DNA of 59,554 bases, filler included, from Dugesia japonica (lineage: Eukaryota), in the NCBI GenBank assembly GCA_001938525.1. It is 6 parts of 6 records of this genome, joined end to end, with 100 filler letters (N's around TTAATTAATTAA, not from the genome) between each part and the next. Parts side by side here need not be neighbours in the genome. Positions count along the whole stretch, not along the records: positions 9,291 to 18,226 come from MQRL01638214.1; positions 18,327 to 26,454 come from MQRL01576008.1; 4 more parts are not named here. One strand, 5' to 3'. Position numbers and translations under genes: made by a program. This document shows positions 7,404 to 48,689 of the stretch, piece after piece. Within the stretch, counting starts at the first letter, position 1. Every line of letters begins with the position of its first letter. The notes below the pieces were generated by a model. The model did not search any database, was not told where the DNA came from, and was given only the letters and a program-made list of their open reading frames with translations.

Positions 7404-7669
7404 AATTTAGTATTTGTTTTAATATAAATTGCATTTTTCTTAATTATGTTCGAATTTTGTTTTACTATTGTTAGGTAAATCTTCGATTATTAATTCATTT
7501 TGCAAATCCCTACTAATATTTTGAGACAACGTTTATTTTATTACTACAAACTATAATTCATAAAATAACTAATATTGAATACAAGCATTTCAATATTAGT
7601 ATTTATATAACTCAATTTCTATTGGGTGAAATTATTAATTAATAATTATTTCCTCATTTTGCACTTCTT

Positions 7670-9190
7670 ATCTTATTTTAGTTTATTCCTTAGTTTTTCC
7701 ACATTTCTTTCTAATCGCTGTCCATTTTCTCCTTGTACGCATACCGCCTTTCATGAATTTTCTCAATTATTCGATAAGGTTCTTCAAATCTGTCTTGATG
7801 TTTATTTTTAGTTTCTACTTTTATGAGTACTAAATCGCCCACTTTGAATTCTCTTTTAGTATTNNNNNNNNNNNNNNNNNNNNNNNNNNNNNNNNNNNNN
7901 NNNNNNNNNNNNNNNNNNNCTCTGCTAATTTTCTTTCCAGAAACGATCTCAGCCGGACTCTTTCTAGTCGTCTTCTGTTTTGTTGCGTATATTGTAAATT
8001 CTATTTCCGATAAAAGATCTGCTTAATCTGATGTCTTTCTTATCTGAAGTGTTGCATTAATTAAATCTCGAATTGTTCTGAACTGTCTCTNNNNNNNNNN
8101 NNNNNNNNNNNNNNNNNNNNNNNNNNNNNNNNNNNNNNNNNNNNNNNNNNNNNNNNNNNNNTCTATCATAACTTGGGATTCAAAAGCTTTTCCACAATCT
8201 AATCTTATCTCTCTTGGACATCCAAATCTCAGTATTGACTTTTCAAAAATAGTTTTTTGTATTGTTTCCTCGTCTTGTTTAGGTAATGGTATAAAAACCA
8301 GATATTTAATGTACTGCTCGATTATTCCAAGAATGTATTTTTTCGTCCACTTGTTTCCCGCATTGGCCCACATATATCTGTGAATATCACTTCAAATAAA
8401 TTGGTAGCTTCTAAACTCTTTGTCTTCTCTTAAATTGCTGTAGTCACTACTTTGGTCTTCTGACAAATTTCACAACTACGAACTATCTTCTGTATTTGGC
8501 TACACAAATTCTTTGCNNNNNNNNNNNNNNNNNNNNNNNNNNNNNNNNNNNNNNNNNNNNNNNNNNNNNNNNNNNNNNNNNNNNNNNNNNNNNNNNNNNN
8601 NNNNNNNNNNNNNNNNNNNNNNNNNNNNNNNNNNNNNNNNNNNNNNNNNNNNNNNNNNNNNNNNNNNNNNNNNNNNNNNNNNNNNNNNNNNNNNNNNNNN
8701 NNNNNNNATCTTCCCTTTCTTGGCATCTTCATGCGACATTTGACACTGTACACATACCTCACATCTTGGTCTAGATAACATTTATGCATTAGCATGTTGA
8801 ATTCCTTTTCTTTATTCCAAAGCGATGTCTAAACTGCTCAGATAATTAATCCATGTCTGGAATTGTGACGTAATTGTTTTCTTGTCGTCATCATAAAGTT
8901 TAGAGCTATGTAATCTGTTCTAAGAGAAAATCTTCTACCGTACAAGTAATGTTTGAAATGCATACAGCCAATAACTCTTTTCGTGTAATGCAGTATCCCT
9001 TTTCATGACTTGTCATTGAGTGTGATCAATAAGCAATAACGTTTTCTCTTCCTTCTTTATCTCTCTGTGACAATACTGTTCCAATTTTATCAAATCTGGC
9101 ATCCGTGTCTAATATAAATGCTTTGTTTATGTTCGGGAAACACAATATTGGTGCAGTCATTAGAGATGTTTTCAAACCCTCAAAAGTATC
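7670..9190 (-). mobile_element. Degenerate Ty3/gypsy pol (RT connection, RNase H, integrase)
   Basis: Minus-strand FILDTDAR, VIAY, YLYGRRFSLRTD, integrase Zn finger (CEICQK), KKYILGIIE, FGCPREIRLDCGKAFES, RQFRTIRDLI; many stops and gaps. Confidence 0.9.
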
Positions 9191-9290
9191 NNNNNNNNNN
9201 NNNNNNNNNNNNNNNNNNNNNNNNNNNNNNNNNNTTAATTAATTAANNNNNNNNNNNNNNNNNNNNNNNNNNNNNNNNNNNNNNNNNNNN
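9191..9290. other. Artificial assembly spacer (N44-TTAATTAATTAA-N44); repeated at 18227, 26455, 37098 and 48538
   Basis: Identical 100-bp structure five times; the 12-mer carries stop codons in all six frames. Confidence 0.95.
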
Positions 9291-10703
9291 TTTTCTTGAT
9301 TATTTACAATATAAACCCCAAGAGAAATTGGTTTTTGTTTATTATCGTTGGTGTCGGTCCATGCCTCAAAATCACCATAAACTGCAAATGGAAGTTTTAT
9401 CATAAAATTAAAATCTGTAAATTCATGAAATTCTTTTTTTTCAAATTTAATTTTTCTTGGTTTGTGATGAACACACTCTTCTTGATGATTATCAACTCTT
9501 TCTTGAGAGGAATATGCATTCATACAATTTATACATAAATAATTATCAATTCCTCGCCGAGAAATAAATGTGTTTAAGTTTTTACATAGGACAGTGATTT
9601 TTTTAAAGTAACAAATTAAATTTATTCATATTTTGTTCTGGTTTACAAACAGTGTGAGAAATATGAGTTGATTCAGGAATTGCATTTGCTTTTTCAATCT
9701 CAAAAACATTTATTTGCCAATTATTATTTTTTTCAAATCTTTTTATATCATCATTTGTTAGTGGAAAATTTACACCTGTTAAAGCAAATTCATTTAAATG
9801 TTTTTTATGAAGACTTACTCGTGTTGGATGTCCATATCTATATCTGTGTGCTAAAATTGAATAAAGAAAACATTTATTATCATCGTTTTCAATATTAATA
9901 ATTTCTTTTTGTTCCACCTGCGCATGATTTATAAATACCAAGTTTTATTTTATAATAAACCGCATAATCTAAAGTCCAATTACTTTCATTTCTTTCACCA
10001 TTAATTTGTGTTACTAAATCTGTTATTATTTCTTGAACTCTCTCTCTCTCTAATATCATTTCTTATTGTTATTCTTCTAATGAGGGAATGAGATTTAAAT
10101 CTTCTTTCTATTCTATTATTATTATGATTATCATCATCATCATTGGATCTATTATTAATTACTGTTTTTGAATAATTTGCCTCTACACCAATATTAACAT
10201 AAATTCTTTTTCCAAATTTAAAAAATCTTGTAATAATTTTTTCAATCTCATATTGATAATAAAATTCTTTACTTTTAAAAACTTCAATATCTCTTAATAA
10301 ACAAATTTCAGATTCATCAAAATATGTAATAACAAAATATTCATATTCAGGTCCTATAAATAATTCATCTATTTTTAATTCCTCTGGTCTTTCTCCAGGA
10401 AGTTTTTCAAATAAATCAACTACAAGATCCTCTTCGTTTTCATTGTGCGTTCTTGATGCATAATGATTTTTCGCTTTTTCTTGATTAGGAATTTTTTTTT
10501 ACAAATGTAACAATAAACATTTTAACACAAACATTTGAATTAAAATGAACAGTTAGTAGTTGTTGTGTTAAAAATCTATCCTTGCATCTTTCACACTTAA
10601 ATCTATAACCTCTTTTACCACAATTTTTTCTATGGGTTGCAAGACCCGATTGTCTTTGAAATAATTTATTACAAATGTTACATATGAGTGTTAATGCTTC
10701 CAT
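9291..10703 (-). pseudogene. 5' part of a Polinton/Maverick-type B-family DNA polymerase with N-terminal C2H2 zinc fingers (frameshifted)
   Basis: Consecutive minus-strand blocks: C2H2 fingers (CNICNKLF..LATH; CERCKDRF..LTVH), INIENDDNKCFLYSILAH..HPTRVS..GVNFPLTNDDIKRFEKNNNWQINVF, then Exo I-like LPFAVYGDFE. Truncated by the spacer. Family call is from motif recognition. Confidence 0.7.
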
Positions 10704-10824
10704 TTATAAATATAAATTTTAATCATATTTATAAAAATTTTTGAAGCCTTTTTTTAGCCTAAAAAATTTTAGATTGTGAGGGTATCCTCTTTAAGAGGTG
10801 AAAATCTTTTTACGAGGAATTTTT

Positions 10825-11220
10825 TTTATGCATTTGAAAATTTTACATTTTTCATTTTTTGTAAAAAATACCACATTTGAAAATTTTGCATTTTCCCATG
10901 TCGAATTTTATATTCTCGATTTTTCATAGAAAATGGCGCATTCGAAAATTTTTCATTTTTCATAATATTTTAAAAATCGGAAAATCGGAAATTTTTATAG
11001 TTTGTAAAAAATCGAAAAATCGGAAAAAAATAACACATTCGAAATTTTTCTTTTTTCATAGAAAATAGTGCATTTGAAATTTTTCATAGAAAATGTAACA
11101 TTCGAAAATTTTCCCGAATTTTCGGAAATTTTTCATTTTTCGTAAAAAATTGGAAATCGAAAATTTTACATTTTTTCATTTTTCGTAAAAAATCGAACAT
11201 TGAAAATTTTACATTTTAAA
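10825..11220. repeat. Degenerate tandem repeat array (cattYgaaaattttWcattttt-like units)
   Basis: Units such as gaaaattttacatttt, catagaaaat and aaaatcgRaaa recur many times directly upstream of the PolB-like gene. Confidence 0.75.
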
Positions 11221-11869
11221 GGCAGTAAAAATCCAAGGCATCATGAAGTCTATATCTATATACTCTCGTGTTTTGTCTTCTTCCGGAATTTGAGTTGAAT
11301 TAAACTAGTGGTTACACAATAACCAAAAAGAAACAATATTTTCGTCGAAGCTCTTTAATTTATTGAAACTTAAAATCCGATCAACTATTTAGTTTTACAA
11401 TTATTCTTGAAATTGTAAAATTCTATTGGTTGTCTAATTTCGTGCGTTCTACCGAATTCGAGCAAATCCGGTACATGCATGGTTCCCAGTTGAATAATAC
11501 CAGTGTTGGTAGAAAGATGTGATCTGCATTTCACACTGAGAATCACTCCATGAGTTAAATTCGAGGTGGAAAGAATCAATACTTTCTCAAATTAAAATTT
11601 GTCACGAATTTATTTGATGTGCCTATTGTAGTGATTCTTAAATTTTTCTTATCCTTTCAATAATCTTTATCTTAGTAATAGATCTCTAGCTAGTAAACCT
11701 TTCTTGGTAATGGGTAAAAATCCACTAAAATTGGTTTTAGTTTTTATATTAAAATCCCTAAGTGAGTGACTAGGAGGGGATAATAAATAACCTAATTACC
11801 CGCGATAATAGGTTGAAGACTCTTGAGTTAGTGTGTATTCCAGGTTTTCTAATTTGATCATACCAGGAG

Positions 11870-12160
11870 AGATTCTACAAAGACATTGTTGGATTTGGAA
11901 GAGTAGGTTACGTAAGAAGGTTATTTGAAGAAATTAGATGTATAATATTCGGAAATGGTGGGCATAGAGCAGAAATGTGCTACAACAACTGATAATGAAA
12001 ATAACAATTGAGAAATGTATGACTGTTGTAGGGTAATGAAACCAACATAATCGAATACATACAGTTGAAGATGAAGACGTAAAAATATACAATGGATATG
12101 AGGAAACAGGTGAAAAAAATTCAATGTGAAAACCACGCATCAATACTTTATCAAATTAAA
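11870..12160 (+). pseudogene. Degenerate gag zinc-knuckle remnant
   Basis: Reads ..RVGYVRRLFEEIRCIIFGNGGHRAEMCY.., resembling decayed tandem CCHC knuckles followed by an acidic tail. Confidence 0.35.
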
Positions 12161-12606
12161 ACTTATGAATCGAGGAGTAATTGGGTTTTCTGCGCCTTTG
12201 ATAATTTTTCAATCTTTCATAGAAAATAATTGAATTTCTCTTATTTATGACAATAATTGCATAGTCTGATAGTCACATATTGATGTTAAAAATCCAAAAG
12301 ACAGGAAGAATACTAAATAAATAGAAGGATATTGTTGCGTTAATACAAACATTAATGTCAATTCTGAACATCGGTTTTGGTAATTATCTTGAAAGAATTG
12401 TGTGCGAGGCTCCAAGAATTGGGTTGCATAATTCGATTCTTATTACTCAGATTGACACACATTCACTTTAATATTTATGTTAATCTTATTTTATTTTATT
12501 GATTATAGTTAGTAAATAGTGATTATTTTAATAATAATTTTTGTTTGAATAATACAAAATATATATTCTTAAAAAAATCCATAATATTAATGTCAAGTTT
12601 TTTTAC

Positions 12607-14800
12607 TGGCAACTACGCCGAAATTAATGCGTTAACTAGAGCAAAACGCGAAGTAAGGCAAAAGATTTTTTAAAATTTGCCTCAAAAAACCCAAGAAATC
12701 TTGATTCAGAAACCAAGTTTCTTTGATGGTCTCAGTCAAAATGCCGAAGATTGGATGTATACAACATATAAAGATTGTGATCGGGTTAAAACGGCATTAA
12801 ATTATGTTGCTGACAGAACTCTATTTATTGAAAACCTTATTAAAAAATATGGATCGATTTTTATGGCATCCAAATTTGATTTAGGANTCACTACATTGAT
12901 TAAGCATCATGTTAATACTAAAGGACCTCCAATTTCTCAAAATCCAAGAAGACAACCAATGTATTTAGAAGATAAAGTTGATAAACTAATTGACGATTTG
13001 TTAGAATCAAAAGTTAATGCGTTAACTAGAGCAAAACGCAAAGAAAGACAAAGGATTTTTTTTAATTTGACTCCAAAAACCCAAGAAATGTTGATTCCGA
13101 AACCAAGTTTCCCTGATGGTCTTAGTCAAGATGCCGAAGATTGGATGTACACAACGAAAGATTTTGCGACATTCAATTAAATGGAAGTTGCTTTTGCATT
13201 AGATATGCTTCTAAGAAGTGATGCAAAACAGTTATAGGAAGAATTTACCTGTTCAAGTGATTCTGTTATTAATGAGGAGGTTGAAAAATGGTTTATGGAA
13301 ACCTTTACAAATACAAAATTGATTTTTGATAAAGTAAAGGAATTTTCTTCAATAAAACAGAGAACAGACGAGAAGTACAGAAATTTTGAGATTCGAGTGA
13401 AAAAAATGGTTACAGATGTGTTTCAAAAGAAATTAACAATTGAAGAAATTGCAAGAGCATTTATTCTGCAAGGATTAGAGAGTGAGAAACTACGCGAATC
13501 CTTTGCTCGAGCTCCATCAATGTCTGACGAAAGAAGAAGAGAATATGCAATGAATTTAGAAAAATTGGTTTCGCATTGAGAAGTCCATGTCATGAAACCA
13601 ACATATTCGCAAGCGATTAGTAAACCTCGATATTATAATCAACGTTCAGAAGGGAAGACACATTTTGGCCACCAAAGGAATTCAGGAAATTTAAAATCTT
13701 TAGAAAATAGAAATCAATCTGAAAAATCTACTGCATATAAGGATCAANATAAAAATTTTTCACAATCAAACAATAATGAGAATTTTTCTTATTAAGCTAT
13801 AGGATCAATGAAGATGATTGCTATGAAATTCTACAATCCGTGTAGCGGTAAAACAAGGTGCATGCGTTTGTTGTGGTAATATGAGTAATAGACGAAATGA
13901 ATGTCCACTTAAGAATAAATGCTTAATTTGTGCTAAAAATGGTCCTTATTTCAAAGACTGCCATTTAGATACGTCCGTCAAAATGGAAGAAAATCATGTA
14001 TTCATGACGAAGAGCAAAGTGCAAACAACATGAATAATTTAGATGAAATCCATGATATTAATGGCAGCGAAATGTAAAAAAACTCTTACCAACTCCCTGT
14101 AGCTATTTCGACGGTGGAGTTGAGTTAATAAATTCTATTATTAATAGAGATAGAAAAGTGGAAGTTGAGATGAATGTTGAAGAATTTAGAATGTTTCAGA
14201 AGTTAGATGGACGGCAATGTAGTATTATGAATTGCAATGGCTGTGATATTGAAATGTTGTGGGATTCTGGAGCATCAATAACAGTGATGAGTGAAGAAAA
14301 TTGGATCCGAATTNGTGCACCTAGTATGATAAAGTCAGAAGTCAGGTGTTTTTCTTACTTGTACTTGCTTGTTATTATCGATAGATTTAGCAAACTATTT
14401 CGACTGATAACTCTTATTAAACAAGATGAAACAGCAATATCAGATGCAATAAAGAACCAATGAATTTATCGATTTGGAAAACCAAAATCAATCTTATATG
14501 ATCGGGATAGAGTTTTTGAAGATAGCAAATAAAACGAATTGTGTGTAAAATTTTGAATAACACAAGAATATACATCACCTTGCTAACATCAAGCAAACGG
14601 TCTAGCAGAGTGAGAAGTTAAAACTGTCAAAGATATGTGTCACTTCAGTGAATAGTGATAAGAACAGATTTACTTGGGATAAATACATTCCCAAGATTGA
14701 ATTTTCAATTAATGCAACATATCAAAGCGCTATTAAGAGATCTCCATTTGAAGTTCTATATGGGCGAAAATTGCTGTTACATGGGTTGTCGAGAAATGAG
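12607..14800 (+). mobile_element. Internally deleted Ty3/gypsy element: gag, protease, integrase (RT/RNase H mostly missing)
   Basis: Gag KPSFFDGLSQNAEDW; knuckle remnants CVCCGNMSNRRNEC and CLICAKNGPYFKDC; protease LWDSGASITVM fused directly to integrase YLLVIIDRFSK..FGKPKSILYDR..ANGLAE. Confidence 0.88.
14077..14122 (+). promoter_or_regulatory. Putative -1 programmed ribosomal frameshift signal at the gag-pol junction
   Basis: Slippery A AAA AAC (14077-14083), 6-nt spacer, then stem CAACTCC-CTGT...ACGG-T-GGAGTTG (14090-14122), located between the end of gag and the protease. Confidence 0.65.
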
Positions 14801-16152
14801 CCCGCTAATGAAACAAAAGTATAAATATACTTACAGTATATAAACTTGTCAATATTGTCATTTGATCACTCTTTTATAAAAACTAAAATGCGGACTTCGT
14901 CATTTGCGACTTAAGACCGTTTAGTTAAAAATAATAACGTATATTTATTGTAATATAGCAACGTCAAAAAAAATTTTCAAAGTAAATCTTTTTATTAAAT
15001 ATAAGTGTTAGCTGTCGATGATTCCCCTAACATTGTAAGAATTATCAATTATGTATAATAGATATTATGATGACGCCGAGTACATTGAAATGAAACGTCA
15101 ATAGTGTTAATATTAATTAATTATAATTATCAAATGTTAATGTAAATAGAAATGTAAATAGAATATAAATATTATAATATTTAATAGACTGAAATTTAAA
15201 AATAACTTACTATGAACTTTACAAATTCAATAACAAATCATAAACTGATAATCAAATGATAATCCACTAATATAAATTCCAAGTTCCATTAGGTTTTGTT
15301 AATACAATTGAATAATCGAAATAATAAGACTGTACTTTTAAACGAAAATATTTTTAAGTTTAATAATATATTTTATAATATATATTATGTTCTAAATTTG
15401 TATTATATTTCTTACTTAGTTTTCGCGGTGGTTACCCATTATTCAAACAACCACTCCGAAAACTTAAGCGTTTATAATTTCAAAAATTCCTCACTTTAAC
15501 TCTAATTATCTTTTCCTCACAATAAGAATTCTATATAGTATAATATATTTATAAAAAATATCATTATATTTATAATATATAGTAATATAGTAATTTATTA
15601 ATATATAGTAAATATATTAAAATCATATAAGGTTTATTATATAACGGTACTATAATTTTCTAAACTCATCCAATTGTTGACTTGCCTTTACAATAACCAA
15701 AAGACATCTCAACAATATAAAAATTACAAATTTTCGAAAGTTTATAACAAAATCATTTTAATAAACTCTCAAAATGTTTTAAGACAAAAAATGAAGTTAA
15801 AAATAATAAATTTTTGTTGAATGATTTCACCACCTCCGTTGGATTCTTGATAATTCAGCACCATAAAAACACAATATTTAACAGTGTCTTTTCTCAGTTT
15901 TCTTATTGTTGGGGTCCCACCTGAGTTGATCTTGAAAAATATGCTGGCCGGGGAAAAACGATCCTCAGTGGTACCCCTTTAAGAATTTAAATCTAATGTC
16001 CCTGGATTCAGTGCAGAGCGGTTGACCTTCATCACTGATTTGAGGTTCACACTCCTACACCTTTGGTTTGGGTTCCTATTTATTTCCCTATTAGTTCAAT
16101 CATTTAAATAAATAAGCAAAAATGCTATTATTAATAGATATTTTAATATACA

Positions 16153-16514
16153 TTACATCTCTTCCAGAGCCCCTAGGTCTAACCATTGGGTCGGCTCCTC
16201 AAGAATAAAGTTAAATGGCGCGATTTCATCGTTATCATCCTAGTCAAGCCATGGCGCATTGCCCAATTGGTGGTACAAATCGGAGATATACCGTTTTAGA
16301 AAGTCTACTTTATTTTGGAGAAGTTGTTTTGTTTGTTCCGCCAGGTCTCCCTGCTTTTTAATGATAACATCTAACTTCTTAATCAGCTTATTCCGTTGTG
16401 CCAGATGCTGCAATAAAACACGCTCGGTCTGGCGTTTGTGATGTCGTTCTAATAGAAGTCACCGGATTATTCTATGGCAACGTCTTAGACTGTTGGGGAA
16501 TATAATTCGTGGCA
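16153..16514 (-). pseudogene. Cassette copy 1, ORF-B (~120 aa, coiled-coil-like; 2 internal stops)
   Basis: tttag|TG CCA CGA ATT gives [M]PRIIFPNSLRRCHRIIR*LLLERHHKRQTERVLLQHLAQRNKLIKKLDVIIKKQGDLAEQTKQLL..; homologous to 21031-21342. Confidence 0.75.
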
Positions 16515-16646
16515 CTAAATAAAATGCATGATTAATTAATGTATTTCTCTTAAAATAAATGAATTATTAATTGACTAATAGTTATGTTGGAAGAATTTAA
16601 TAAAAGGAGGGAGTTATTTATTTATAATTTACAAAAATATCAAATT

Positions 16647-17005
16647 TCAAAACCGCAATGTCTGTGTGGTTTTGTCGATCATCAACGGTTTGGGCGGCAT
16701 CACTATTTATGGCTTTAAAATGTATTTGACCAGTTTATTTTCTCGGTCTTGGTATGACCAGATGACTTCGGCGAAGGACTCTATTTGGGTCTTCCCTACT
16801 CTTTCCTGGGCATGTGATGCTTCAGCCTCCTTCCTAAATTCAACACATTTGGCTTTATACTGTTTTACTTTGGCTTCTGCAGAAGCGGTATCTGCCTCCC
16901 AACACCGCTTGGCGAGGCGATAGAGGTCCCAAGTCATCTCTTGGTCCTCGCTTGATTCCTGCATCTTTTTTATCGAAGCAGAGAAACTATTCAGAGAGGG
17001 GTGCA
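16647..17005 (-). pseudogene. Cassette copy 1, ORF-A (~119 aa helical protein; 1 internal stop)
   Basis: tttag|TG CAC CCC gives [M]HPSLNSF..MTWDLYRLAKRCWEADTASAEAKVKQY..LMIDKTTQTLRF*; homologous to 21454-21809. Confidence 0.78.
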
Positions 17006-17203
17006 CTAAAAGTAAGTAACAAAACATTAAGATATTTAAGTTGTAATAAAGACAAGATAACATTTGAAATTCTAATTAAACACACTCACTTAGACTTTAA
17101 AGTTGCTAAATCCTAAAATAGGTTGCCACAACACATAAATAGACCCAAGAAACATATTTTTTATTCCATAGCAAAACACAAAACACAAAAAAATTAGAAT
17201 GAT

Positions 17204-17620
17204 TTAAGCTCCATTCATGTCAGAAGTATTATTGTTTTCGGAGATACCACCACCTGCCTGATTCCGCAGCTCCAATAAGGTACTGTTTACAAATTCGGTC
17301 AACCTAGTGAAAGGCGGAAGGTGAGCGGTGGACACGGGTATGACCGAAAGCCCGTCCTGCCATACACTGGTGGTCTGAAGAGTCTCACGGTTTGTGACTG
17401 TGGTAAGGTGTAGTATTTCTTGTGTACGATCATAACCCTTCCATTGATAGAAGGCCTGTCACTCGGCTGCAGCCCACTCTCTTTCATTATCTGTGTCCTC
17501 CTTGAATAAATTTGAATAGTCTACAAGAACTCCAGCGTTTCGGTAGTAAGGGTTCCAGTATCGACGGAATATCACTCTATTGGTGCGCCGATCGAACAGT
17601 GTTTCCCATACGTGTTCCAT
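17204..17620 (-). pseudogene. Cassette copy 1, ORF-C (138 aa; 1 internal TGA)
   Basis: tttaATG: MEHVWETLFDRRTNRVIFRRYWNPYYRNAGVLVDYSNL..E*QAFYQWKGYDR..; homologous to 22101-22441. Confidence 0.75.
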
Positions 17621-17777
17621 TAAATTTATTTGGTTCTGTAATAAAGTTGAATTAAAATTAATTTTAGCTATTTACGAACTAAGTTAACAAAAATGTGTTG
17701 CAGAAGGATTCAAAATTTTTGACTAAGACTCGCAATATATATTTAATTTACGCCAGAGATAAAACCAAATACACTGA

Positions 17778-17968
17778 TCAGTCTTCACTGTCTATATCAA
17801 CGCTACAATGTAATGGAAATAAGTCGACGTAACATTGAAGATCCAACTCATCGGGGGTAGGGATACTATCTGGGAAGAGAAGATGTGCGATTAACTGCTT
17901 TCGGCAAATTCGCTTACATTATCGCCGAATAACAGCTAAGGTTTAGGTTAAGATGCTTGAAATTAATC
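17778..17968 (-). pseudogene. Cassette copy 1, ORF-D (3' portion)
   Basis: ILT*TLAVIRR*CKRICRKQLIAHLLFPDSIPTPDELDLQCYVDLFPLHCSVDIDSED* aligns with 22546-22731. The 5' end is undefined. Confidence 0.6.
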
Positions 17969-18326
17969 TGAATGAAAATTATCAATGATAATAAAAGATT
18001 TCTTGTTAATTGAACATAACCCGGCGAGAGTGATGATTATTCGTTCCCAAGATTTTTCGTAGAAGCTAATCCTATTTTTAGCATAAAGCGACTTGATAGT
18101 GATACTATTGCTCTTATCTCCTAATAGTAACCGTACTGATAACGCTAGTAAAATTCATAATAAGAAAATAATTCTGAAAAACTAGATATCATAGAACTTT
18201 ATTAACAAATAGATTATTAGTGATACNNNNNNNNNNNNNNNNNNNNNNNNNNNNNNNNNNNNNNNNNNNNTTAATTAATTAANNNNNNNNNNNNNNNNNN
18301 NNNNNNNNNNNNNNNNNNNNNNNNNN

Positions 18327-20968
18327 AGTATAAAAGGATTTAATAGACTCGGAGAAACAATGTTAGAGAAAAACGAGGAAAGATTGGATTGCGCAAATAA
18401 CAGCTCATTGGAAACGATTGGAAAGATACGTGTCGAAGTTATAGTTTCAGAGGTATGCAAGGAAGTAACATCTATAATAGTAAAAAAACTAATATCAAAT
18501 CTAATTGGTGGAGTGGAATTTCTGAATATGTTTAGGTATCATCTTCAAAAACGTGCAGGGTAAACACCAATAATCATCGAGAAAATTTTGTTTGCAACAT
18601 TGAGACAAAATTTGAAAGACAAATACAGACGGGTGACCAATTGAGACATGCAATGGAAATTCTAGAATTGATTGACTGCAATTATTCAGAATAATGAGAA
18701 TGTATTTATGGCGGATAAATGGGACATTGTATGTACACACTTAACAATGCTTCGAATAATCACTACAGGAGGTTCAATTAACATAAAACCGTATCGTCAA
18801 TCAATGAATCTAGAAAAGATTGAAGAGGCCATCAAGAATTTATATTATAATAGTATCATCCTGAAGTGCAATTTGCAATAGAATATGCCATTTATCCTTT
18901 TTTAGAAAAAGGAAAAAAGGATATGCAATTATGCTTAGACTTTAGACAGCTCAATGAAATAACNNNNNNNNNNNNNNNNNNNNNNNNNNNNNNNNNNNNN
19001 NNNNNNNNNNNNNTTTTCCTATGCCAAATGTGGACAAAATGCTAGATGCTTTGGAAGGTACGCAGTATTTTAGCTCAATAGACTTGGAAAATGCATACTA
19101 CCAAGAAAATTTCAGTGAAGAATCTCAAGAAAAACGAAAGAAATCGACCAAACAAGGGGAATTTTGTTTCAATAGAATGCCTTTTAGAATTGCAGCAGCA
19201 CTACGTACGTTCCAGGAAATGATGAATAAAGTAATCGGAAAAATAAAGGGAGAGATGGTTTATCTAGTTAATATTCTCATATTTACCCAAACAAAGGAGC
19301 AACACAATGAAATAATCAATAAAGTATTAACAGAAATTAAGAAGGCTGGTCTTAGAGTTAATCCGGAGAAATGTCAATTCTTGCGAAAGAAGATCAAATT
19401 TTTGGGACACCTTATCAGTAAAGAAGGTGTCAAACAGATCCAACTAAGATAGAATTAATAAAGAACTTTTGTAAACCAAAAAGACGTTAAGAAAATGAGA
19501 AGCTTGTCGAGAATTTGCAATTACTATCACAAATTTATTAAAGATTATTCGAAAAAAGCTAGATTGCTGGAACAACTCTGTAGTGTAACAAGAAAATTGA
19601 ATTGGCGAATAAATTAAAAGAAGTTTTTAATGGAATGAAAGAATGGACAACAATGGGCAAGAAAGAGTAATTGCATATGAATCGCACGAAATGACGAGTC
19701 ATTAAAAAGGATATTATACTTAGCGGAAAGAATTACTCGCAATTTAATACTTTTGTATTCATTTTAAAAATTATTTATCTGGGAAGAGATTTATTCTTAG
19801 AACAACCATAAAGCTATCACTTTTATGCTAAATACAAAGAAGCCGATTACATCACAGTTTAAAATCTGGATTAATTATTTGAGTTGTTTAGATATAAAAT
19901 TGGAATATAGAAAAGGATCGCTTCATACACATGAGGATATGTTGTCAAGGAGTAAGTTCGATACATGTTCAAAATGTCTAATGTCACATAAAAATTCCAA
20001 AAGTAAAAAATTAAAAAACAAGGATGTTAAATACAGTAGATATTTAAGGAAAACAAGGCAATTTTGAAGAAAACGATGAAGGAACATGGATGGTTAAGTA
20101 GACGAGGTTATAATGAGGACACACCATCTTTTCTGGCATGCTCAAGCAGAAAAAATAGCGTAGTGTATGAAAAGTAAATATAACGCAAAACATTTGTGGA
20201 ACAAAGTCCAAGAGATTGTTCCAACCTGTATAATATGCCAGAAAGCTAAAGTGTTGACAACAAAACGAAGGAAGAAACGAAAAAGACACAGACAACTGTT
20301 ATTTATAGATGTGTGTGGACCACTGCCGGAGACAAGAGGTCATAAAAAATATGTTCTCGGTATAATAGATCAATTCAGTAAGTATGCAGCCTTAATAGCA
20401 AAGACAAGACAAGATGTAGATACCATACGGAAAGCAACAATAGAGAAGTGAATATTAAAGTTCGGTTGTCCGAGATAAATTCGAGTTAATTGTGGAAGAG
20501 CATTTGAGTCTAAATCAATGAAAGATTTTGCAGCAAAGCATGAAATTACCCTCAATAATTTGAGTCCATATCATCATAACACAAATGAAAAAATCGAGGG
20601 TTAGTTTAGAACTATGCGAGATATGATAAATGAGCCACTTAAAGAAAAAACCTCAGATTGAGTGGATGTATTGCTAGAGATGGAATTTACCTTAAATGCA
20701 ACAAAACAGAAAACTAAAAGAAAAAGCCCTTCTAAAATCGTATTTGGGAAGAGAATAAGCAGAGAAAAATGGTACTAAACAAATACCCAGAGTGCATAAA
20801 GAGCAAGATAAAGAGAAGTTAACCGAAAGACAATTCGTTTTCTGTGATGAAGTCTTAGTGAAAGTTGAAACCAGAAACAAGATTGTTATGAAGGAGCTTT
20901 TAAGATCAAGAGAAAGATTCACGACAGACGTTACATCCTAGAAGATACAAACGGAAAAAGTTAGCAAG
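18327..20968 (+). mobile_element. Degenerate Ty3/gypsy pol (protease, RT, RNase H, integrase)
   Basis: PYRQ, LCLDFRQLN, YFSSIDLENAYYQ, FNRMPF, VYLVNILIF (decayed YxDD), KCQFL..KFLGHLIS, CIICQK, KKYVLGIIDQFSK, SPYHH; many frameshifts. Confidence 0.93.
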
Positions 20969-21030
20969 AGGAATTTATTTTACACATAAAACATTTAATT
21001 CTACATAAAATTTAGCGCCTCAGAGTCAAG

Positions 21031-21342
21031 TCACTGGGAGGGATAGCCATTCAGAAAATCAAATGCGGCCTCATCGTCGTCGCTATTCCACCTTGTCCAT
21101 GACCCCAGCTCTAATCGGGTGGATGAGCTAGCGATGTATCTGTTTAAGAAGTTAATTTTCTTCACAAGAATCTGCTTGGTACGTTCGGCCAACTCTCCTT
21201 GTTTTTTAACTATTAGATCTAATTTTTTGATTAGCCTATTCCGTTGGGTAAGATGCTGTAACATAGAATGTTCATTTTGTTTGGTAAATTGCCGTTCTAG
21301 AAGTAATTTTTGGATTAATCGGTGGTAGTCGTATTCTTGGCA
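21031..21342 (-). pseudogene. Cassette copy 2, ORF-B
   Basis: tttag|TG CCA AGA ATA gives [M]PRIRLP, then a frameshifting deletion, then HRLIQKLLLERQF..MLQHLTQRNRLIKKLDLIVKKQGELAERTKQIL..FDFLNGYPSQ*. Confidence 0.75.
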
Positions 21343-21453
21343 CTAAAAATTATATAACATAGATTTTTTAACACAACAAATGAATCAGAAATTCAAAGTA
21401 GATTCAACATGAAATATTTATTTAAAGACATGACAGGAAAATCATATTAACGA

Positions 21454-21809
21454 TCAACTAAAAGTTTGTGTGGCCTTATCTACCATCAAAGCCTCTAAAG
21501 AAATATGGTTCCGCATTTCAAGTAAATCGGAAACCAGTTTATTTTTACGGTCATGGAGGGACCGGATAACATCCGCAAAGTATTCCAGTTGGCGTTTCCA
21601 AAAGCGCTCTTGAGTATGGAAGGCATCCGCTTTGAGTGGGTAATTACGACATTTACTTTGGTAGCGTTTCACTTTAGCATTAGCCGCAGCAGTATCGACC
21701 TCCCATTTTCTCTTGTATAACCGGTATAAGTCCCACGTCATGTCGAGGTCCTCACTTCCTTCATGTAATTTCTTAGTGGGATAGACGGATCGGTTAAGTG
21801 ATGAATGCA
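21454..21809 (-). CDS. Cassette copy 2, ORF-A (open frame, ~118 aa, unknown function)
   Basis: tttag|TG CAT TCA gives [M]HSSLNRSV..MTWDLYRLYKRKWEVDTAAANAKVKRY..LMVDKATQTFS*; uninterrupted, and similarity to copy 1 starts at the AG|TG. Confidence 0.75.
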
Positions 21810-22100
21810 CTAAACAATTAAGATACAATTACCCATTTACTGGTTGTTACAAATAAGCTCAATTAACTTGCTGGCCATACTTAATTAAATAAAAGGTGAA
21901 AGAAAAACCTCCCAGCCTACAAATAATATTTCAGGTAATTTCTTCTACGGTTACACCATAGTTGAACGTAAAAGGAAGTCAGATTATGATGGCGGTATGT
22001 ATTCAAATGTTAAACCTAAGTAGAATGATTAGACATAAAACAAAGATCGCAAACAGACTATTAATTAAAACAACTTTATTTGTAACAAACAACATCAAGA

Positions 22101-22441
22101 TCAATTTCTGGAATTTTCAATGTTTTCCAAATTTTCCAAGTTTGTAGGGTTCCCAGGCTCCCTAACTTTCTATAGGAGATTATCAATGGCCACTCTTATC
22201 CCAAGGGGAGCCGGTAGAGTCCCATAAGAAAACTGGGTTATCAAACTACGGGTTGGGCCATTCCATGAGTGAAAGTTCTGGCTTTCTCCTAAATCTCGGA
22301 TCCGTTCAAGTATCGTTTCCACAACAGGCAGGTTAGAGCGGTCTACTAACATACCGGCTCCTCTATTCTAGGGGTTACCTTGACGCCTGAAAATCATCCG
22401 CAACATTCGGTGATCTCAACTTTGCTCCCATTTATAGTACA
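22101..22441 (-). pseudogene. Cassette copy 2, ORF-C (internal stops)
   Basis: tttag|TG TAC TAT gives [M]YYKWEQS*DHRMLRMIFRRQGNP*NRGAGMLVDRSNL..ESQNFHSWNGPTR..; the N-terminus aligns without gaps to copy 1 ORF-C. Confidence 0.72.
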
Positions 22442-22545
22442 CTAAATTAAAAAAGTAAAATTTAAATATGATTAAAGACACAATTACTAATTACAGAATT
22501 ATTAACACCAATAAGGATTTATTCACACCCAAACAGATATAATAT

Positions 22546-22731
22546 TCATGGTTCATAATCCAGATCTAGACCAGATTGAAGCGGAAACAACTCTTCAAAG
22601 CATCACAGATCTGTTTCATTCGGGGATAGAATCAGATCTGGGACCAAAAGGTATCCTACCAATTGCTTCCTACGGGATCTTTCCCTCTTTTTACGGATAT
22701 ATTTTACAGTTTCCGTTAGAATATAGGTCAT
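22546..22731 (-). pseudogene. Cassette copy 2, ORF-D (3' portion)
   Basis: MTYILTETVKYIRKKRERSRRKQLVGYLLVPDLILSPNETDL*CFEELFPLQSGLDLDYEP*; homologous to 17778-17968. Confidence 0.6.
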
Positions 22732-22959
22732 TTAATAAGGGTAATCTATGACCTAAATACAACAAATTCAATATCAATGATGGTGCATATGGGATTTTAA
22801 ATTCAGGTTCGACCTGTTACTAGAAAATCTCAAACGGAACATATCGTAATTTACTCCAATAATCTGCGAAAGGTTAAAAAATTTGATTTAATAGTCATAT
22901 TTAAACCGAATAAAACAGTTGACATTTAATAATAAAGGGGCAATAATGTTTCGTGAAAC

Positions 22960-23285
22960 CGAAAACTCATATAACAGTAATAATACTGGGATTTTTACTA
23001 ATCATGATCGTGATAATAAAAATAATACTGGTGATGATAACCAGAAAGGGATTGCGGTTAGTGACATTAATAATGACATGAAAATAATAAAAACAATGAT
23101 AAGAAACCATAACTACAAAAATAATAATGAATGTCCTACTGATAATGATGATAGGAATAACGATAATGACAATATTAATAATAATGTTACCAATATCAAT
23201 CATAATAATAATAATATTAATAATAACAATAATAATAATAACAATAACAGTTACGATAATAATATTAATAGTAATAATGATTTTC
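22960..23285. repeat. Degenerate (AAT)n low-complexity tract
   Basis: aataat/gataat/aacaat repeats that generate Asn- and Ile-rich spurious ORFs in several frames. Confidence 0.8.
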
Positions 23286-24279
23286 ATTAAAGCGTCGGCC
23301 ATAATATCACTGAATGATGTTCAATGCCCAATTGATGTTGAGTAAAATTGATGATAATCTTTTCAATCATAGGGACACGAAGACATCCACCAAAATTATC
23401 ATAAGACCAGTGTATCGCAATAAGAATCACAAGTTGAGAAAATTCATCGGGTGTTGACACGGTGATTCCACTGGTGATGAGTAATGATGACTCTTCTCGA
23501 TTGTGGATGAGTTTGTTAAAATATGAAATGACCAAGATATTTTTTACGTGAAGTCATGAAACGATAGTTTAATACCGGGATGTGGTTATGCCACCATAAT
23601 CATTAACTTGTCTGCACTAATTCGGCAGATGGGCTAACTAGATAGGACAACATACGGCTGGTGTTGCTAGTTATAATGATGGCAAAGGTATCTCCATAAA
23701 GATAAAGTTGGTATGTATCACTACTGATTAACTATCATTCCTTAGCAATATTGTACCAAGGTCTCAATTTCCATTAGGGGCCCTAATTTTCTGGATTTAA
23801 CGGCAATTATTGCTGGCGTGCATACTCTTAACAAAATAGGCAGCGGAGAAAGTTAAATCATCCTCAGTTCGTGATTTACACACATCTCTCATATCACCAG
23901 ACAGCAAATATCTACTACCAATATTGATTTGTAGTTATTGCTATTATTGAATTTAACTGATATCAGTTGTGGAAATAATTTACGAAGAAAATTATATTAC
24001 ATTTCCAGTGGCAGAGTGACCAAGATTGAATACTATTTAATTTAATATAATCAACTCGCTTTTAATCGTTTATGGAAAATTTTAAAATAAAACTTTACAC
24101 TGTTAATTATTATCGATGAATCTAAAATTAAATACGTAAGTTTGATCAAATAATCCTTATTTATTTATATAACAAAGCATCTATTCATTATTCATACACT
24201 AAAAACAAGAATCATACTTACTAGTTAATAGTAGACTCGTCTGCAACAGGAATTGTAAATTTTAACCATCTTCTCCTTA

Positions 24280-25184
24280 ATTTCCACAAAAACGTAATGA
24301 ATTTCTTCTTTGACAGAATCTGATAAAAAATTATCCACCTATAAGTTGTGTATCAGTGTTTGGAAAAATTAACCGCAATGATGATACTCGTAATAAAATA
24401 AACTTGAGAAGTTATTGCTTTTTCAATGATTATTAACCAGACACTTTTGTATAAGTTGTTGTAACACAATTAGTAAAATTTTTAGAGTATTTTACGTCTA
24501 AAATATGAGGGTTTATATATTTTTTTGCCATGCACCACCACTTTTCCTAGATTGGTGCCTATTTTTACTTTTGCTTCTTAAGTTTCTGATTGGTGCCAAC
24601 ACTGAATTTTCTACTTTTTCTATAAATTTTATACTTCCCATTGGTGTCTATTTTTAGAGCACCTGCTGACTTCTTGCTCTTTGTTTTCTGTTTATTTTCT
24701 GGCCCTTATTAGCCTGATCCTTAACTCCTTTTTTTCAGACCATTCAGATATAGGTACCTTTTTCTCGTTAGGAAAATCTATTGCACCATGCCGTTTGGCT
24801 TCTGAATTTTCTTTCCCGAAATTTTCCAATTTTTCTGAGTGAAGATAATCGCCTATAACTGATTTTCTTGTAATTAAAATCTTTTACCCGAATAAATTAA
24901 TTAATTTATTCCAATAATTTTTAGTCACAATTTTAATAATATTTTCTTGTTTTTCAATAATAAATTATAATTTCTTTAATCATAATTTCTAGTTTATACT
25001 TTATTATGATAATTTTTCCATTTCATAATAATTTTAACTTTTCGGATCTTCTTTACATTATTTATTACCCGTTAATAGTGAATTTACAGTTATTGTTGAT
25101 TATTTTCTTATTAATTTCTCTCTGGCTGATGATCTGGGGTCCTTGATTATGACTACTTCTTCACATGGGTGTTTCACCCTAACA
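24280..25184 (-). mobile_element. LTR-like repeat (family starting TGTTRGGGTGAAACACC), minus orientation
   Basis: Starts TGTTAGGGTGAAACACCC at 25184; collinear blocks shared with 47437-48240 (caggtg.ctctaaaaatag..ccaa; aatctag.aaaagt.g; TATA box at 24512-24517; gtcaa(a)gaag.attca). Confidence 0.65.
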
Positions 25185-25196
25185 ATAATAATAATA

Positions 25197-25265
25197 CAGT
25201 CAAACCTCCCCATAAAGTCACTCAGTTCCGGTCCCGATGGTTGACGTTATAGGGAGATTTGACTG
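25197..25265. mobile_element. 69-bp Tc1/mariner-pogo-type mini-MITE
   Basis: 24-bp TIR CAGTCAAACCTCCCCATAAAGTCA / CAGTCAAATCTCCCTATAACGTCA (3 mismatches), flanked by TA on both sides within an AAT tract. Confidence 0.8.
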
Positions 25266-25756
25266 TAATAATAATAACAAGTAAATAAGGTATTTTTAAA
25301 TTTTAGATTATATAGGGAATTTCATTTCAGAAATTAAAATTTTCATTTCAAAATTTTCAATATCTAAAAATTAATTTTTCCACTGATCTTTAAATTAAAC
25401 AAATATTTTGTAAAACAAATTTTACTTATTAAATTTGTTTTTCAAAATATTTATATATAATGAAGTTAAATATACTATAATTAATAATGATAATTACAAT
25501 TATATATAAATATTGATCTGTTTTTCTAAATGCAACTTTTGAATTGAATTATCAACCAGTATAAATTATTTCAATCAACAAATTTACAAATGAAAGTACA
25601 CCATACATGCGCAATATCACAAAAAATTATAAAAAAACAAATTATTTGTTTTAAAAGGTTATTTTTAGCATTCAATTTTATATTCCTTGGTAACGAAATA
25701 GTAAAATAATTATGTTTTATGGAATTTTAATATTGCTTCTAAAAATTTGAATTTCA

Positions 25757-25965
25757 TTAAGTTCTTTCTATGGTGACCACTGTCAATTCAATCAAGGCTA
25801 TGTTGATCAATTGATAAACTTTACAATCAACATTGATACCGTTAAACCAGGAGTACCAAAAATTTTTCCAAAGCATACTAAAAAAATGTCCACAGCGCTC
25901 AAAATCAAAATATTGGTTTATTATTATGTAAGTTTTTAATTTATGGATTGATAGGATTGATTTTC
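25757..25965 (-). pseudogene. Possible class A GPCR fragment (TM2-TM3), frameshifted
   Basis: KLKT../TNILILSAVDIFLVC (TM2-like) then WFNGINVDCKVYQLINIALIELTVVTIER (ECL1 W..G..CK and TM3 ending in ER); cut by a gypsy fragment. Confidence 0.4.
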
Positions 25966-26454
25966 TCCAATTTTGGAGAAAATGATGAAGGAACATGGAT
26001 ACCTGATGATAAAGTAGATGAGGTTATAATGATGATACACTATATTTTGTGTCATGCTGGAGCAGAAAAAGCAGCAGCGTATATGAAGCATAAATATAAC
26101 GCGAAACATTTGTGAAGCAAAGTCAAAGACGTTGTCCGAAGCTGTATAACATGTCAGTAAGCTAAAGTGTTGACAACAAAACCGAAGGAAGAAACGAAAA
26201 AGACGCAGCTAGCCAAAATATTTGAACTGCTATTTATAGATGTATGTGGACCACTGCTGGAGACAAGAGGCCGAAAAATATGTTCTCGGTATAATAGATC
26301 AATACAGTACGTATATAGTCTTGACAACAACCATAAAACAAGATGAAGATACCATACAACAAGCATTATTGGAGAAGTGGATATTAAAGTTCGGGTGTTC
26401 GAGAGAAATTTGAGTTGATTGTGGAAGAGCACTTGAGTCTAAATCAATGAAAAA
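25966..26454 (+). mobile_element. Ty3/gypsy integrase fragment (same family as 18327-20968)
   Basis: Near-collinear DNA match to 20060-20525 (gatgaaggaacatggat, gctaaagtgttgacaacaaaac, tgtggaccactgc, gagtctaaatcaatgaaa). Confidence 0.9.
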
Positions 26455-30199: not shown

Positions 30200-31057
30200 A
30201 TATAGCTTTTAAGGAATCAGTTATGCAATAATGTTTGAGCACTAGAATCATACACACATTCAAACAGTCAATTAGGCATTCACCTATTATCACATACATA
30301 TGTCGATTTACTTATATAAAGGTCAATATGAAATATTATATTATTAGCCATATCTCATATTCCCCCCTTTTAAAGTGTTTTACCATTCAATATTTTTTAT
30401 TATTTTTTACGATTAGTAAGTTCTAATTTAAAACTCATATCATGTATTTGCTCTATAATTATTGCTGGTCCTTCATGTGTTTTCATTTTTATATGGACTT
30501 TCTCTTTTAATTAAAACTTCGTCACCAATATTAAATTTTCTAACTGCAGTATTCTTTTCTAAAGTTTTGGAATTTTCATAGTTATTTAAATTGTTTATTA
30601 TTCTTTTATGCTTTAAATTTCTTTCATTTAAATTATTTTTTACTTTCCTAACAATCCATTCTTTAAATCGTTCCCAAAAAACTATTTCAGCTGGAGCTAC
30701 ATTCATCGTTCTGTGAATTATGGTGTTCAACATAAATTCTATTTTTGGTAATATTTCGGCCCAGTCCTGCTTTTTTTTATCCTGTAAACTAATATGAATT
30801 GTATCTCTTNNNNNNNNAAATTGTCTTTCAATTATTCCATTACTACTATGATGATATGGACTAGAGTATTGAATTTCACAATTAAATTCTTTAGTTAATT
30901 GTTGGAATAGATTTGATTCAAATGATTTTCTCAGGTCTGTATGTATTATTCTCGGTGCACCATATTTCAAAATCCGATTATTTTTAAATATTTTAACAGT
31001 GTTATTTTCATTTTGATGTAAAATTGCATTGAGAGATGAATCTACTGAATTTATCAA
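30200..31057 (-). mobile_element. Ty3/gypsy 3' fragment (integrase core and C-terminus, PPT, start of 3' LTR)
   Basis: YGAPRIIHTDLRKSFES..SSPYHHSSNGIIERQF..WAEILPKIEF..FNIGDEVLIK; polypurine tract AAAAGGGGGGAA on the minus strand (~30360-30371). Confidence 0.85.
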
Positions 31058-31064
31058 TTATAAC

Positions 31065-43868: not shown

Positions 43869-44816
43869 ATGGAACCAGCATTATTATTTATTGGTTCTCA
43901 ATATGATATTACCTGCGTTTTTATGACGAAGAATGATTTATATTCAGGTGATACAAATGGATATGTTATTAAGTGGGATTTTGAGTCTAGGCGTTCAGAC
44001 TTGAAATGGAAAGCTCATAGCAAACATATTTTAAGTATTGAGTATTTAAATAGCAAACATCAAGTTGTTACTCATGGTAGAGATGGATTTATAAAATTTT
44101 GGATGAGAACAGATAATAAGTTTGTGGAAGTTAATCGTACCGAATCAAATCAATTCAGCTTTTGTCGAATGGCATTGTATCACGCAGAATTCAATGAAGT
44201 AGAGTTGATTTGTAATACTTTAGATGATGAGGATCACACCTTAGAAATAATTGAATATCCAAAAGACGTAATTACACATAATCTATATTCAAAGCCATCT
44301 GTAGATCTACCTATAACAAGTTATGGAATGGTAATGTGTGTTTGTATATTAGACATAGAATTNNNNNNNNNNNNNNNNNNNNNNNNNNNNNNNNNNNNNN
44401 NNNNNNNNNNNNNNNNNNNNNNNNNNNNNNNNNNNNNNGATTGTATTATTTGTATGGCTATCAACAAAGAACGATTAATAATAGTGGGAACTCCTGAATC
44501 GGAGTTGAATGCGCTTAAAATAGACGACGAATGCAACAAAATAATTGAAATTAAAAAAATTTCATTAAAAAACGCTGGAATCAGTTCAATTGTATTTAGA
44601 CAAGATGGCAAAATATTTGCTACAGCTGGATGGGATGGATTGATCCGAGTGTTTTCCAGTAAATCATTTAAGCAATTAGTAGTACTGAAATGGAATATTG
44701 ATTATAGAAATAACGAAAAACCAACTCATCTAGCATTAGCTTTTAATAATGAGAATTATTTATTATCGGGATCCGATGATAAGATTATTTGTTTTTGGGA
44801 TGTATTTCGGAAATAA
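43869..44816 (+). CDS. GNB1L: WD40-repeat protein, GNB1L/ASA1-like; apparently single exon (internal N gap)
   Basis: 315-aa frame with VTHGRDGFIKFW, FSFCR, YGMVMC, GISSIVFRQDGKIFATAGWDGLIRVFSSKSFKQLVVL, LLSGSDDKIICFWDVF. Confidence 0.8.
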   Translation: MEPALLFIGSQYDITCVFMTKNDLYSGDTNGYVIKWDFESRRSDLKWKAHSKHILSIEYLNSKHQVVTHGRDGFIKFWMRTDNKFVEVNRTESNQFSFCRMALYHAEFNEVELICNTLDDEDHTLEIIEYPKDVITHNLYSKPSVDLPITSYGMVMCVCILDIEXXXXXXXXXXXXXXXXXXXXXXXXXXDCIICMAINKERLIIVGTPESELNALKIDDECNKIIEIKKISLKNAGISSIVFRQDGKIFATAGWDGLIRVFSSKSFKQLVVLKWNIDYRNNEKPTHLALAFNNENYLLSGSDDKIICFWDVFRK

Positions 44817-46705: not shown

Positions 46706-46719
46706 TACTCGATTGAATG

Positions 46720-48300: not shown

Positions 48301-48689
48301 TAATCAGCAGAACCTAGACAAGAAAAATTATTTCTCCGAGGAAACCATTCTTATCAGTTACTACCGATTGCCAGCACTGTTGCAGAAACCCTCTAATTAA
48401 TATCGAAAAGTAAAATTTTATTTTTATGATTATGTTGGGGTGAAACACCAGATTAAGGCAAATTAATGGCGTAAGTAGATACGAAATTCCAAAGATCTAC
48501 ATAAGAAAAGAGAATGAAGAATTCGGACCCAGAAAGGNNNNNNNNNNNNNNNNNNNNNNNNNNNNNNNNNNNNNNNNNNNNTTAATTAATTAANNNNNNN
48601 NNNNNNNNNNNNNNNNNNNNNNNNNNNNNNNNNNNNNATGATATTTATAATAAATATACGTAAATATATAATAAATTTCAAGTAAATTA

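Follow-up and report, generated by a model that had tools for sequence, protein, structure and literature searches.

We analysed a stretch of 59,554 nucleotides (nt) from Dugesia japonica (assembly GCA_001938525.1), hereafter the window, which is composed of 6 parts of 6 records with 100 N between parts and consists of AT-rich animal DNA with many gaps. Two of these parts, positions 9,291-18,226 (MQRL01638214.1) and 18,327-26,454 (MQRL01576008.1), carry two diverged copies of a cassette of four small open reading frames (ORFs) on the minus strand, each of which belongs to a longer repeat unit. The ORFs were numbered in reading order, i.e. ORF1 (RKQL), ORF2 (IFRR), ORF3 (MTWDLY) and ORF4 (LQHL), and correspond to D, C, A and B, respectively, in a preliminary description of this DNA, which had regarded them as an antisense accessory-gene module of a retroelement. 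The ORFs of both copies are listed below; a slash marks the putative splice junction.

17778-17954, minus strand: ORF1 copy 1 (RKQL), conserved block only, with two stops; its 5' end is undefined
17204-17619, minus strand: ORF2 copy 1 (IFRR), begins with TG after an altered acceptor, with a stop at codon 53 and the first ATG at codon 134
16647-17005, minus strand: ORF3 copy 1 (MTWDLY, long helix), starts at TTTAG/TG, with an internal stop at codon 99
16153-16514, minus strand: ORF4 copy 1 (LQHL, long helix), starts at TTTAG/TG, with stops at codons 18 and 91 and the first ATG at codon 119
22546-22722, minus strand: ORF1 copy 2, conserved block, with one internal stop
22101-22441, minus strand: ORF2 copy 2, starts at TTTAG/TG, with three internal stops
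21454-21809, minus strand: ORF3 copy 2, starts at TTTAG/TG, with 117 codons open
21001-21342, minus strand: ORF4 copy 2, starts at TTTAG/TG, with a frameshift near its 5' end

Purifying selection on the four ORFs

A tblastx comparison across the whole window revealed four collinear minus-strand blocks shared by the two copies, with a joint E value of 3e-98, and no third copy of the cassette elsewhere in the window.

17954-17766 and 22722-22534, minus strand: ORF1 block, 49% protein identity
17626-17423 and 22448-22245, minus strand: ORF2 block, 46% protein identity
17009-16659 and 21813-21463, minus strand: ORF3 block, 54% protein identity
16431-16153 and 21279-21001, minus strand: ORF4 block, 51% protein identity

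In the frame read, silent sites were saturated between copy 1 and copy 2 in all four ORFs (proportion of differing sites, pS, 0.79-0.83), whereas replacement sites were not (pN 0.30-0.40). Pooled over the four ORFs, the differences at first, second and third codon positions amounted to 142, 87 and 218 across 344 codons, an excess at third positions with P 1e-11, and the upper bootstrap bound of dN/dS was 0.13, values that are to be read with the caveat that the compared blocks had been picked by protein similarity. None of the other five frames displayed a codon pattern as strong as that of the frame read, and the spacers between the ORFs did not align beyond shuffled sequences (z scores from -0.2 to 2.0). 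The preliminary description had claimed the same four ORFs in the same order and on the same strand in both copies, a likeness at the protein level with unalignable spacers, and past purifying selection, all of which is borne out by these data, with a dN/dS far below 1 and spacers less conserved than the ORFs.

Both copies have decayed, since stops or a frameshift break seven of the eight ORF copies and ORF3 copy 2 is the only one that is open throughout. We mapped sequencing reads and contigs to positions 15800-18200, i.e. to the side of copy 1. At two of the stops within copy 1, a different letter accounted for 58 of 85 and 122 of 153 of the depth contributed by other contigs, and because these mostly disagree with the stops, the breaks look private to copy 1. 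The ORFs are almost certainly genuine coding modules that have been under selection and that belong to a mobile repeat.

The repeat unit and its ends

On the mapped region, 2404 contigs of a DNA run (X1) aligned on 2.4 kb, 1210 of them being less than 90% alike, which characterizes the cassette as part of an abundant and old repeat. Depth ranged from 76 to 43,500 inside the unit compared to 9.8 outside of it, with depth not being equivalent to copy number, and contigs that derive from other copies also show ORF3 and ORF4 in this order (4 of 15 listed joints). Within ORF3, the stretch 16691-16771 reached a DNA depth of 43,500 compared to about 1,500 in the terminal block, i.e. about 30 times as much; ORF3 may thus be common to many more families than the remaining unit.

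An end of the unit was located by a step in depth from 9.8 to 1516 in the bin containing position 15907, where the plus strand reads TGTTGGGGT. The minus strand of unit copy 2 begins TGTTAGGGT at 25184, and the end motifs at 15907 (plus strand) and 25184 (minus strand) are alike in 8 of 9 letters. The motif TGTT[AG]GGG occurs 11 times in the window compared to 0.9 expected occurrences (maximum of 4 in 200 shuffles). Apart from the ORFs, the units comprise the following features.

15907-16152, minus strand: unit copy 1, non-coding terminal block on the 3' side, ending in ...CCCCAACA, with an LTR-like (long terminal repeat-like) end at 15907 according to depth step and motif
22760-24200, minus strand: middle of unit copy 2, with an AAT-rich repeat (22946-23290) and a GC-richer block (23300-23950)
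24485-25184, minus strand: 5' 700 nt of unit copy 2, starting with TGTTAGGGTGAAACACCC at 25184, U3-like
24512-24519, minus strand: TATA-like box, 665 nt from the 5' end
47437-48537, plus strand: third unit, 5' part only, with the same start motif
48433, plus strand: start of a fourth unit, 996 nt inside the third unit and just ahead of a gap

The start of the third unit is identical to the one at 25184 over 18 letters except one, and the two are collinear for about 700 nt (24485-25184 with 47437-48130; z 15.3 overall, 8.6 and 15.2 by part). The TATA-like box is aligned in these two units, in the third one at 627 nt from the same end, and a polyadenylation-type AATAAA precedes the 3' end of the unit. 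It follows from the TATA-like box and the shared 5' end that the ORFs lie in sense orientation within a unit of their own. Unit copy 1 continues into the gap at 18227, and unit copy 2 is broken off about 25 nt beyond ORF4; the 4.2 kb of copy 2 together with the terminal block of copy 1 give a unit length of about 4.5 kb.

The GC-richer block at 23300-23950 may represent further decayed coding DNA, for which the window holds no homologue for comparison. The terminal block does not qualify as a fifth ORF, as none of the six listed indels at 15929-16035 (1-5 nt) is a multiple of three, and a structured RNA at the same place was also dismissed (z -0.64, with a single Rfam match under the gathering score). 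The 3' block is not repeated at the 5' end (z -0.8 and 2.8), which led us to reject an element with short LTRs. A 5 bp match between the flanks of 3179 and 25184, 22 kb apart, was attributed to chance (1 of 15 pairs, AT-rich, dissimilar ends), and a weak tblastx match between 18221 and 25649 was treated as noise. Further TGTT[AG]GGG motifs lie at the edges of other repeats (3179, 15032, 27954, 37237, 50231 and 51623) and are probably ends of other LTR families. Beside the 5' end of the unit, a 91 bp fold-back (25186-25276; 35 nt arms, 83% complementary) resembling a miniature inverted-repeat transposable element is located in an AAT run.

Acceptor-like sites, start codons and polyadenylation signals

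ORFs 2 to 4 begin with TG directly after an acceptor-like TTTAG in five of six cases, and the sixth, ORF2 copy 1, retains the TG. The junctions of these three ORFs are all in phase 1, i.e. one base into the codon, with the frame of ORF4 copy 2 being shifted further downstream. In the two units, TTTAGTG is present twice (0.21 expected) and four times (0.50 expected), and five of these six sites open ORFs 2 to 4. Between the acceptor and the ATG shared by both copies of ORF3, 22 codons are conserved as protein, 10 of them encoding identical residues and 7 of these via changed codons. Likewise, 20 codons ahead of the first ATG of ORF4 copy 2 are conserved as protein, and ORF4 and ORF2 of copy 1 contain no ATG until their last codons. 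Because conserved coding sequence precedes any ATG, the start must come from upstream. The TG that three unrelated ORFs all keep would be hard to account for other than by a leader ending in A.

Every ORF ends at a stop, and there is no common donor ahead of it. AATAAA was detected in all seven spacers tested (chance of 0.07-0.38 each) and also after ORF4 copy 2. An ORF followed by its stop and by AATAAA in the absence of a shared donor corresponds to the layout of alternative last exons. A weak candidate for the end of the leader is the following site.

24216-24222, minus strand: donor-like A/GTAAGT, about 270 nt after the presumed transcription start

The GC-rich, exon-like blocks with acceptors between AT-rich spacers could also be taken for four exons of one host gene, or for a host gene family with decayed duplicates. 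This is scarcely credible, since every block runs to a stop that has no shared donor ahead of it and that, in ORFs 1, 3 and 4, is aligned between the copies, and AATAAA comes after each block; moreover, more than 1000 diverged contigs and mobile-element ends were found, and none of the ORFs matched any host protein.

The same succession of acceptor, ORF and AATAAA (six of six), followed by a spacer of 104-291 nt to the next acceptor, is also what would be expected from an operon that is borne on a repeat and resolved by spliced-leader trans-splicing, and the spacing fits that of flatworm operons, given as 300 bp or less in the available part of one account (PMC12582326). However, the flatworm leaders reported there, as far as that part covers them, all end in ATG, which would be out of frame at a phase-1 TG, and in copy 1, neither ORF2 nor ORF4 could use an early ATG of its own instead. 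We therefore consider such an operon very unlikely.

Predicted proteins

AlphaFold models, based on two-sequence alignments, predict one long helix for ORF3 (residues 20-118, predicted local distance difference test score, pLDDT, 82) and a helix of residues 2-73 plus a short one for ORF4 (pLDDT 86). The two proteins would be soluble and mildly basic, each with a single helix of about 100 residues in ORF3 and about 70 in ORF4, which agrees with the coiled-coil character that had been ascribed to them beforehand. The highest 19-residue hydropathy was 0.14-0.93 across all 8 ORF copies, none of which has a membrane segment, which excludes a fusogen similar to fusion-associated small transmembrane (FAST) proteins or an Env.

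As noted in the preliminary description, no known domain is recognizable: no Pfam family reached the cut-off in 9 ORF pieces, and the matches to Pfam and PHROGs were either below the cut-off or concerned one weak family of unknown function. No homologue was retrieved by a word search near the length of ORF3, by a search against longer proteins, in which none of the 524 candidates reached E 0.01, by HMMER across 1.84 billion representatives, among PDB sequences (best E 0.069) or by exact look-up of 6 proteins, and no relative was found among metagenome and viral contigs; these blanks are weak negatives, as the collections seem to be without proteins of this organism. Atlas features yielded a best value of 0.82, at most a lead. 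ORF3 and ORF4 might act as intracellular coiled-coil adaptors on the transcription of the element or on host silencing; this role is a guess that we hold to be doubtful.

A putative accessory unit on a probable long terminal repeat

A short inverted repeat at TG...CA ends is a hallmark of LTRs, and the unit is dispersed and multi-copy, as LTRs are, with 2404 contigs and four units in the window. Among the LTR-based options, a solo LTR fits best, because neither a primer-binding site nor a polypurine tract flanks the ends and because the 3' block is not repeated at the 5' end. Judged from the sequence, the abundant repeat of about 4.5 kb is probably, with moderate confidence, the solo LTR of a large Ty3/gypsy element, with starts that would be completed by splicing; the absence of parent features at its ends would fit solo LTRs without proving them.

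Based on this, we tentatively propose how the unit could be expressed. Transcription would start from its own promoter on the minus strand, about 0.7 kb inside the 5' end of the unit. A short leader ending in A would then be spliced to one of the TTTAG/TG acceptors, which would create an A/TG start codon, and each mRNA would terminate at the AATAAA after its ORF, so that the ORFs would represent alternative last exons. On a further-reaching reading, the unit would be a self-contained, LTR-borne accessory unit, in which one leader provides several last exons, each with a polyadenylation signal, with the first letter of their start codon, the choice of splice site alone selects a coiled-coil regulator, and the many solo LTRs of the genome could go on producing such regulators in the absence of their parent. 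This further-reaching reading we regard as possible rather than probable.

Several observations weigh against a solo LTR with starts completed by splicing. Across the window, TTTAGTG is not enriched (15 occurrences, 11 expected), and ORF1 is devoid of a TTTAG/TG acceptor. The donor-like site at 24222 is of a kind no commoner than chance would give, with 6 on the minus strand of the window, and is unconserved in the third unit, and the leader holds an upstream ATG. The joint of a spliced RNA was not found among the 36 of 13.6 million and 4 of 11.6 million records that mapped, none of which was 95% alike; contigs of a further run (X8) match the unit, a run that is possibly DNA and no proof of RNA, and no sequence record containing the stretch is listed as RNA. 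Among the 40 of 557 variable places listed for the mapped contigs, 1 of 11 in ORF3 fell on a third position, which is no excess, and 14 of 24 did so in ORF4. Furthermore, no homologue supports any function for the ORFs. No copy carries both ends; the length of about 4.5 kb and the TG...CA pair were pieced together from two diverged copies, and a target-site duplication is therefore unreadable. Neither a parent gag-pol nor a primer-binding site nor a polypurine tract was found at the four unit ends in the window. Finally, a promoter located 0.7 kb inside the unit implies that the R and U5 regions of the LTR together span about 3.8 kb, which is unusually long.

The last two points are in favor of a rival reading, in which the unit is not the LTR of any gag-pol element but stands on its own as a non-autonomous element, or is a fragment of a Maverick-like element or integrated DNA virus, and would be mobilised by an integrase in trans. 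Mavericks have also been described as expanded in Dugesia, according to the part of the source at hand (10.64898/2025.12.11.693146). However, the inverted repeat of the TG...CA ends comprises only about 9 bases, the unrepeated 3' block argues against an element with short LTRs, the 4.2 kb of copy 2 contain no replication, capsid or transposase gene, and viral and metagenome contigs hold no relative, so that we consider this explanation unlikely, and retain the solo LTR as the preferred interpretation of the unit.

Relation to the neighbouring integrases

The preliminary description had placed the cassette antisense behind plus-strand Ty3/gypsy integrases. Such integrases do end near 14800 and 20960, respectively; both belong to truncated debris outside the unit.

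12600-14810, plus strand: remnant of a deleted gypsy element with gag, protease and integrase, of another family
18327-20975, plus strand: decayed gypsy pol, cut about ten codons short of its end and without polypurine tract
7600-9190, 25968-26452, 30340-31057 and 31058-33201: further gypsy pol remnants, two of which end in a polypurine tract directly after the integrase

An accessory module located antisense between pol and 3' LTR of these elements, as in Retand, would be in line with the position of both copies, which are found downstream of a plus-strand integrase and on the other strand (in copy 2 within about 40 nt of it), and Retand has antisense ORFs at that place in the available part of its description (PMC11963269). 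However, the two integrases share only 37% identity over 92 amino acids of the integrase core, below the 46-54% of the cassette. The family of the second pol has three further remnants in the window, and in a sister with 77% nt identity over 1356 nt, the end of the integrase is directly followed by a polypurine tract (33186-33201), with the cassette being absent. The cassette is also absent from the three other integrase copies in the window whose 3' side can be seen. Moreover, about 1 kb of very AT-rich DNA separates the first integrase from copy 1, and depth is about 10 (9.8) at 15800-15880 between them, compared to 1516 in the next bin. As for the integrase remnant that ends near 14810, its LTR may terminate at the motif at 15032.

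The second pol diverges from its sister near 20960, with its last codons and the polypurine tract missing, and copy 2, which adjoins it, has lost its own terminal block; the junction at 20960-21000 would be a deletion junction or an assembly join. As pol debris makes up 9.7 of the 59.6 kb of the window, adjacency to pol carries little weight, and the adjacent integrases appear to be unrelated debris of a transposon-rich region. The ORFs are very probably unrelated to them, and a Retand-like module of the adjacent elements, which the window itself already refutes, is highly improbable. What remains of the earlier proposal is a mobile repeat with accessory genes that is probably derived from a retroelement, other than those of the adjacent integrases.

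Other features of the window

Apart from the cassette and the pol remnants, the window contains host genes, other transposon remnants and repeats.

157-1659: host intronless RING-TRAF-MATH gene
4993-7169: fold-back repeat of 2.2 kb, with arms of up to 590 nt at 85%
9239-10703, minus strand: decayed ORFs with C2H2 zinc fingers, with a tandem array at 10836-11217
39989-40537: host MPP-beta exon (best named match Echinococcus, 218 bits; next named 199)
43869-44816: host WD40 gene
46394-46831: weak DDE_1 transposase remnant
53341-53838: Mariner-type (HTH_48) transposase remnant

One ORF in 9239-10703 resembles what we take to be the front part of a Maverick-type polymerase.

Discussion

The accessory genes of animal Ty3/gypsy elements, such as MDG1 sORF2 and the anti-apoptotic domain of Burro1, which is cited in the available part of PMC13465017, begin to explain the spread of these elements from cell to cell and their coexistence with stem cells. 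The four new protein families described here, which have been under long selection, represent testable candidates for element-encoded regulators in a stem-cell system rich in PIWI-interacting RNAs. If the genes sit in an LTR, solo LTRs would be protein-coding units, and dividing the start codon between a single leader and several exons would, if true, amount to a compact, virus-like control. A split start would also explain why annotation based on ATG overlooks such ORFs. A literature search across title listings and the openings of abstracts revealed no account of the cassette; it could have been mentioned earlier among unnamed accessory ORFs in planarian papers.

Among known systems, the plant Retand elements also carry extra conserved ORFs in a Ty3/gypsy setting, some of them with coiled-coil (Smc-like) matches, whereas their ORFs are antisense, between their own pol and 3' LTR, and mostly TRP28, as stated in the accessible sections of PMC11963269. 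TRP28 (PF04195) was not found by Pfam in the 9 ORF pieces, and the cassette has no tie to the adjacent pol. Elements of the MDG1 group possess the small sense ORFs sORF1 and sORF2 near the 5' end, with a short transcript via an internal polyadenylation site; in contrast to what is proposed here, these transcripts do not undergo splicing, and sORF2 encodes a membrane fusogen (PMC11952523, in the part available), whereas the unit has four ORFs and no membrane segment.

The giant planarian Ty3/gypsy elements Burro/GYPSM1 resemble the unit in a planarian-type host, a very high abundance, long LTRs and accessory ORFs. In the consulted part of PMC6431247, their size is given as over 30 kb in total or as up to 25 kb internally, with a Gag-MATH-BIR-BCL2-Env-Pol polyprotein between the LTRs. 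Their domains are part of this giant polyprotein, and an accessory ORF is located upstream, as opposed to a spliced array of small genes in the LTR (PMC6431247, same part). No Burro domain is present in the unit, none of the units has an internal region next to it, and Burro is set apart here by its description, not by sequence; Burro elements are the obvious candidate parent.

The closest precedent for the putative start codons is the env gene of Drosophila errantiviruses of the springer subclade, in which splicing of a leader completes the start codon, there as AU/G and for one env gene 3' of pol, according to the part of 10.1101/2023.08.03.551782 that was available. In the unit, by comparison, the start codon would be split as A/TG, and it would serve three small non-env ORFs, each of which is followed by an AATAAA.

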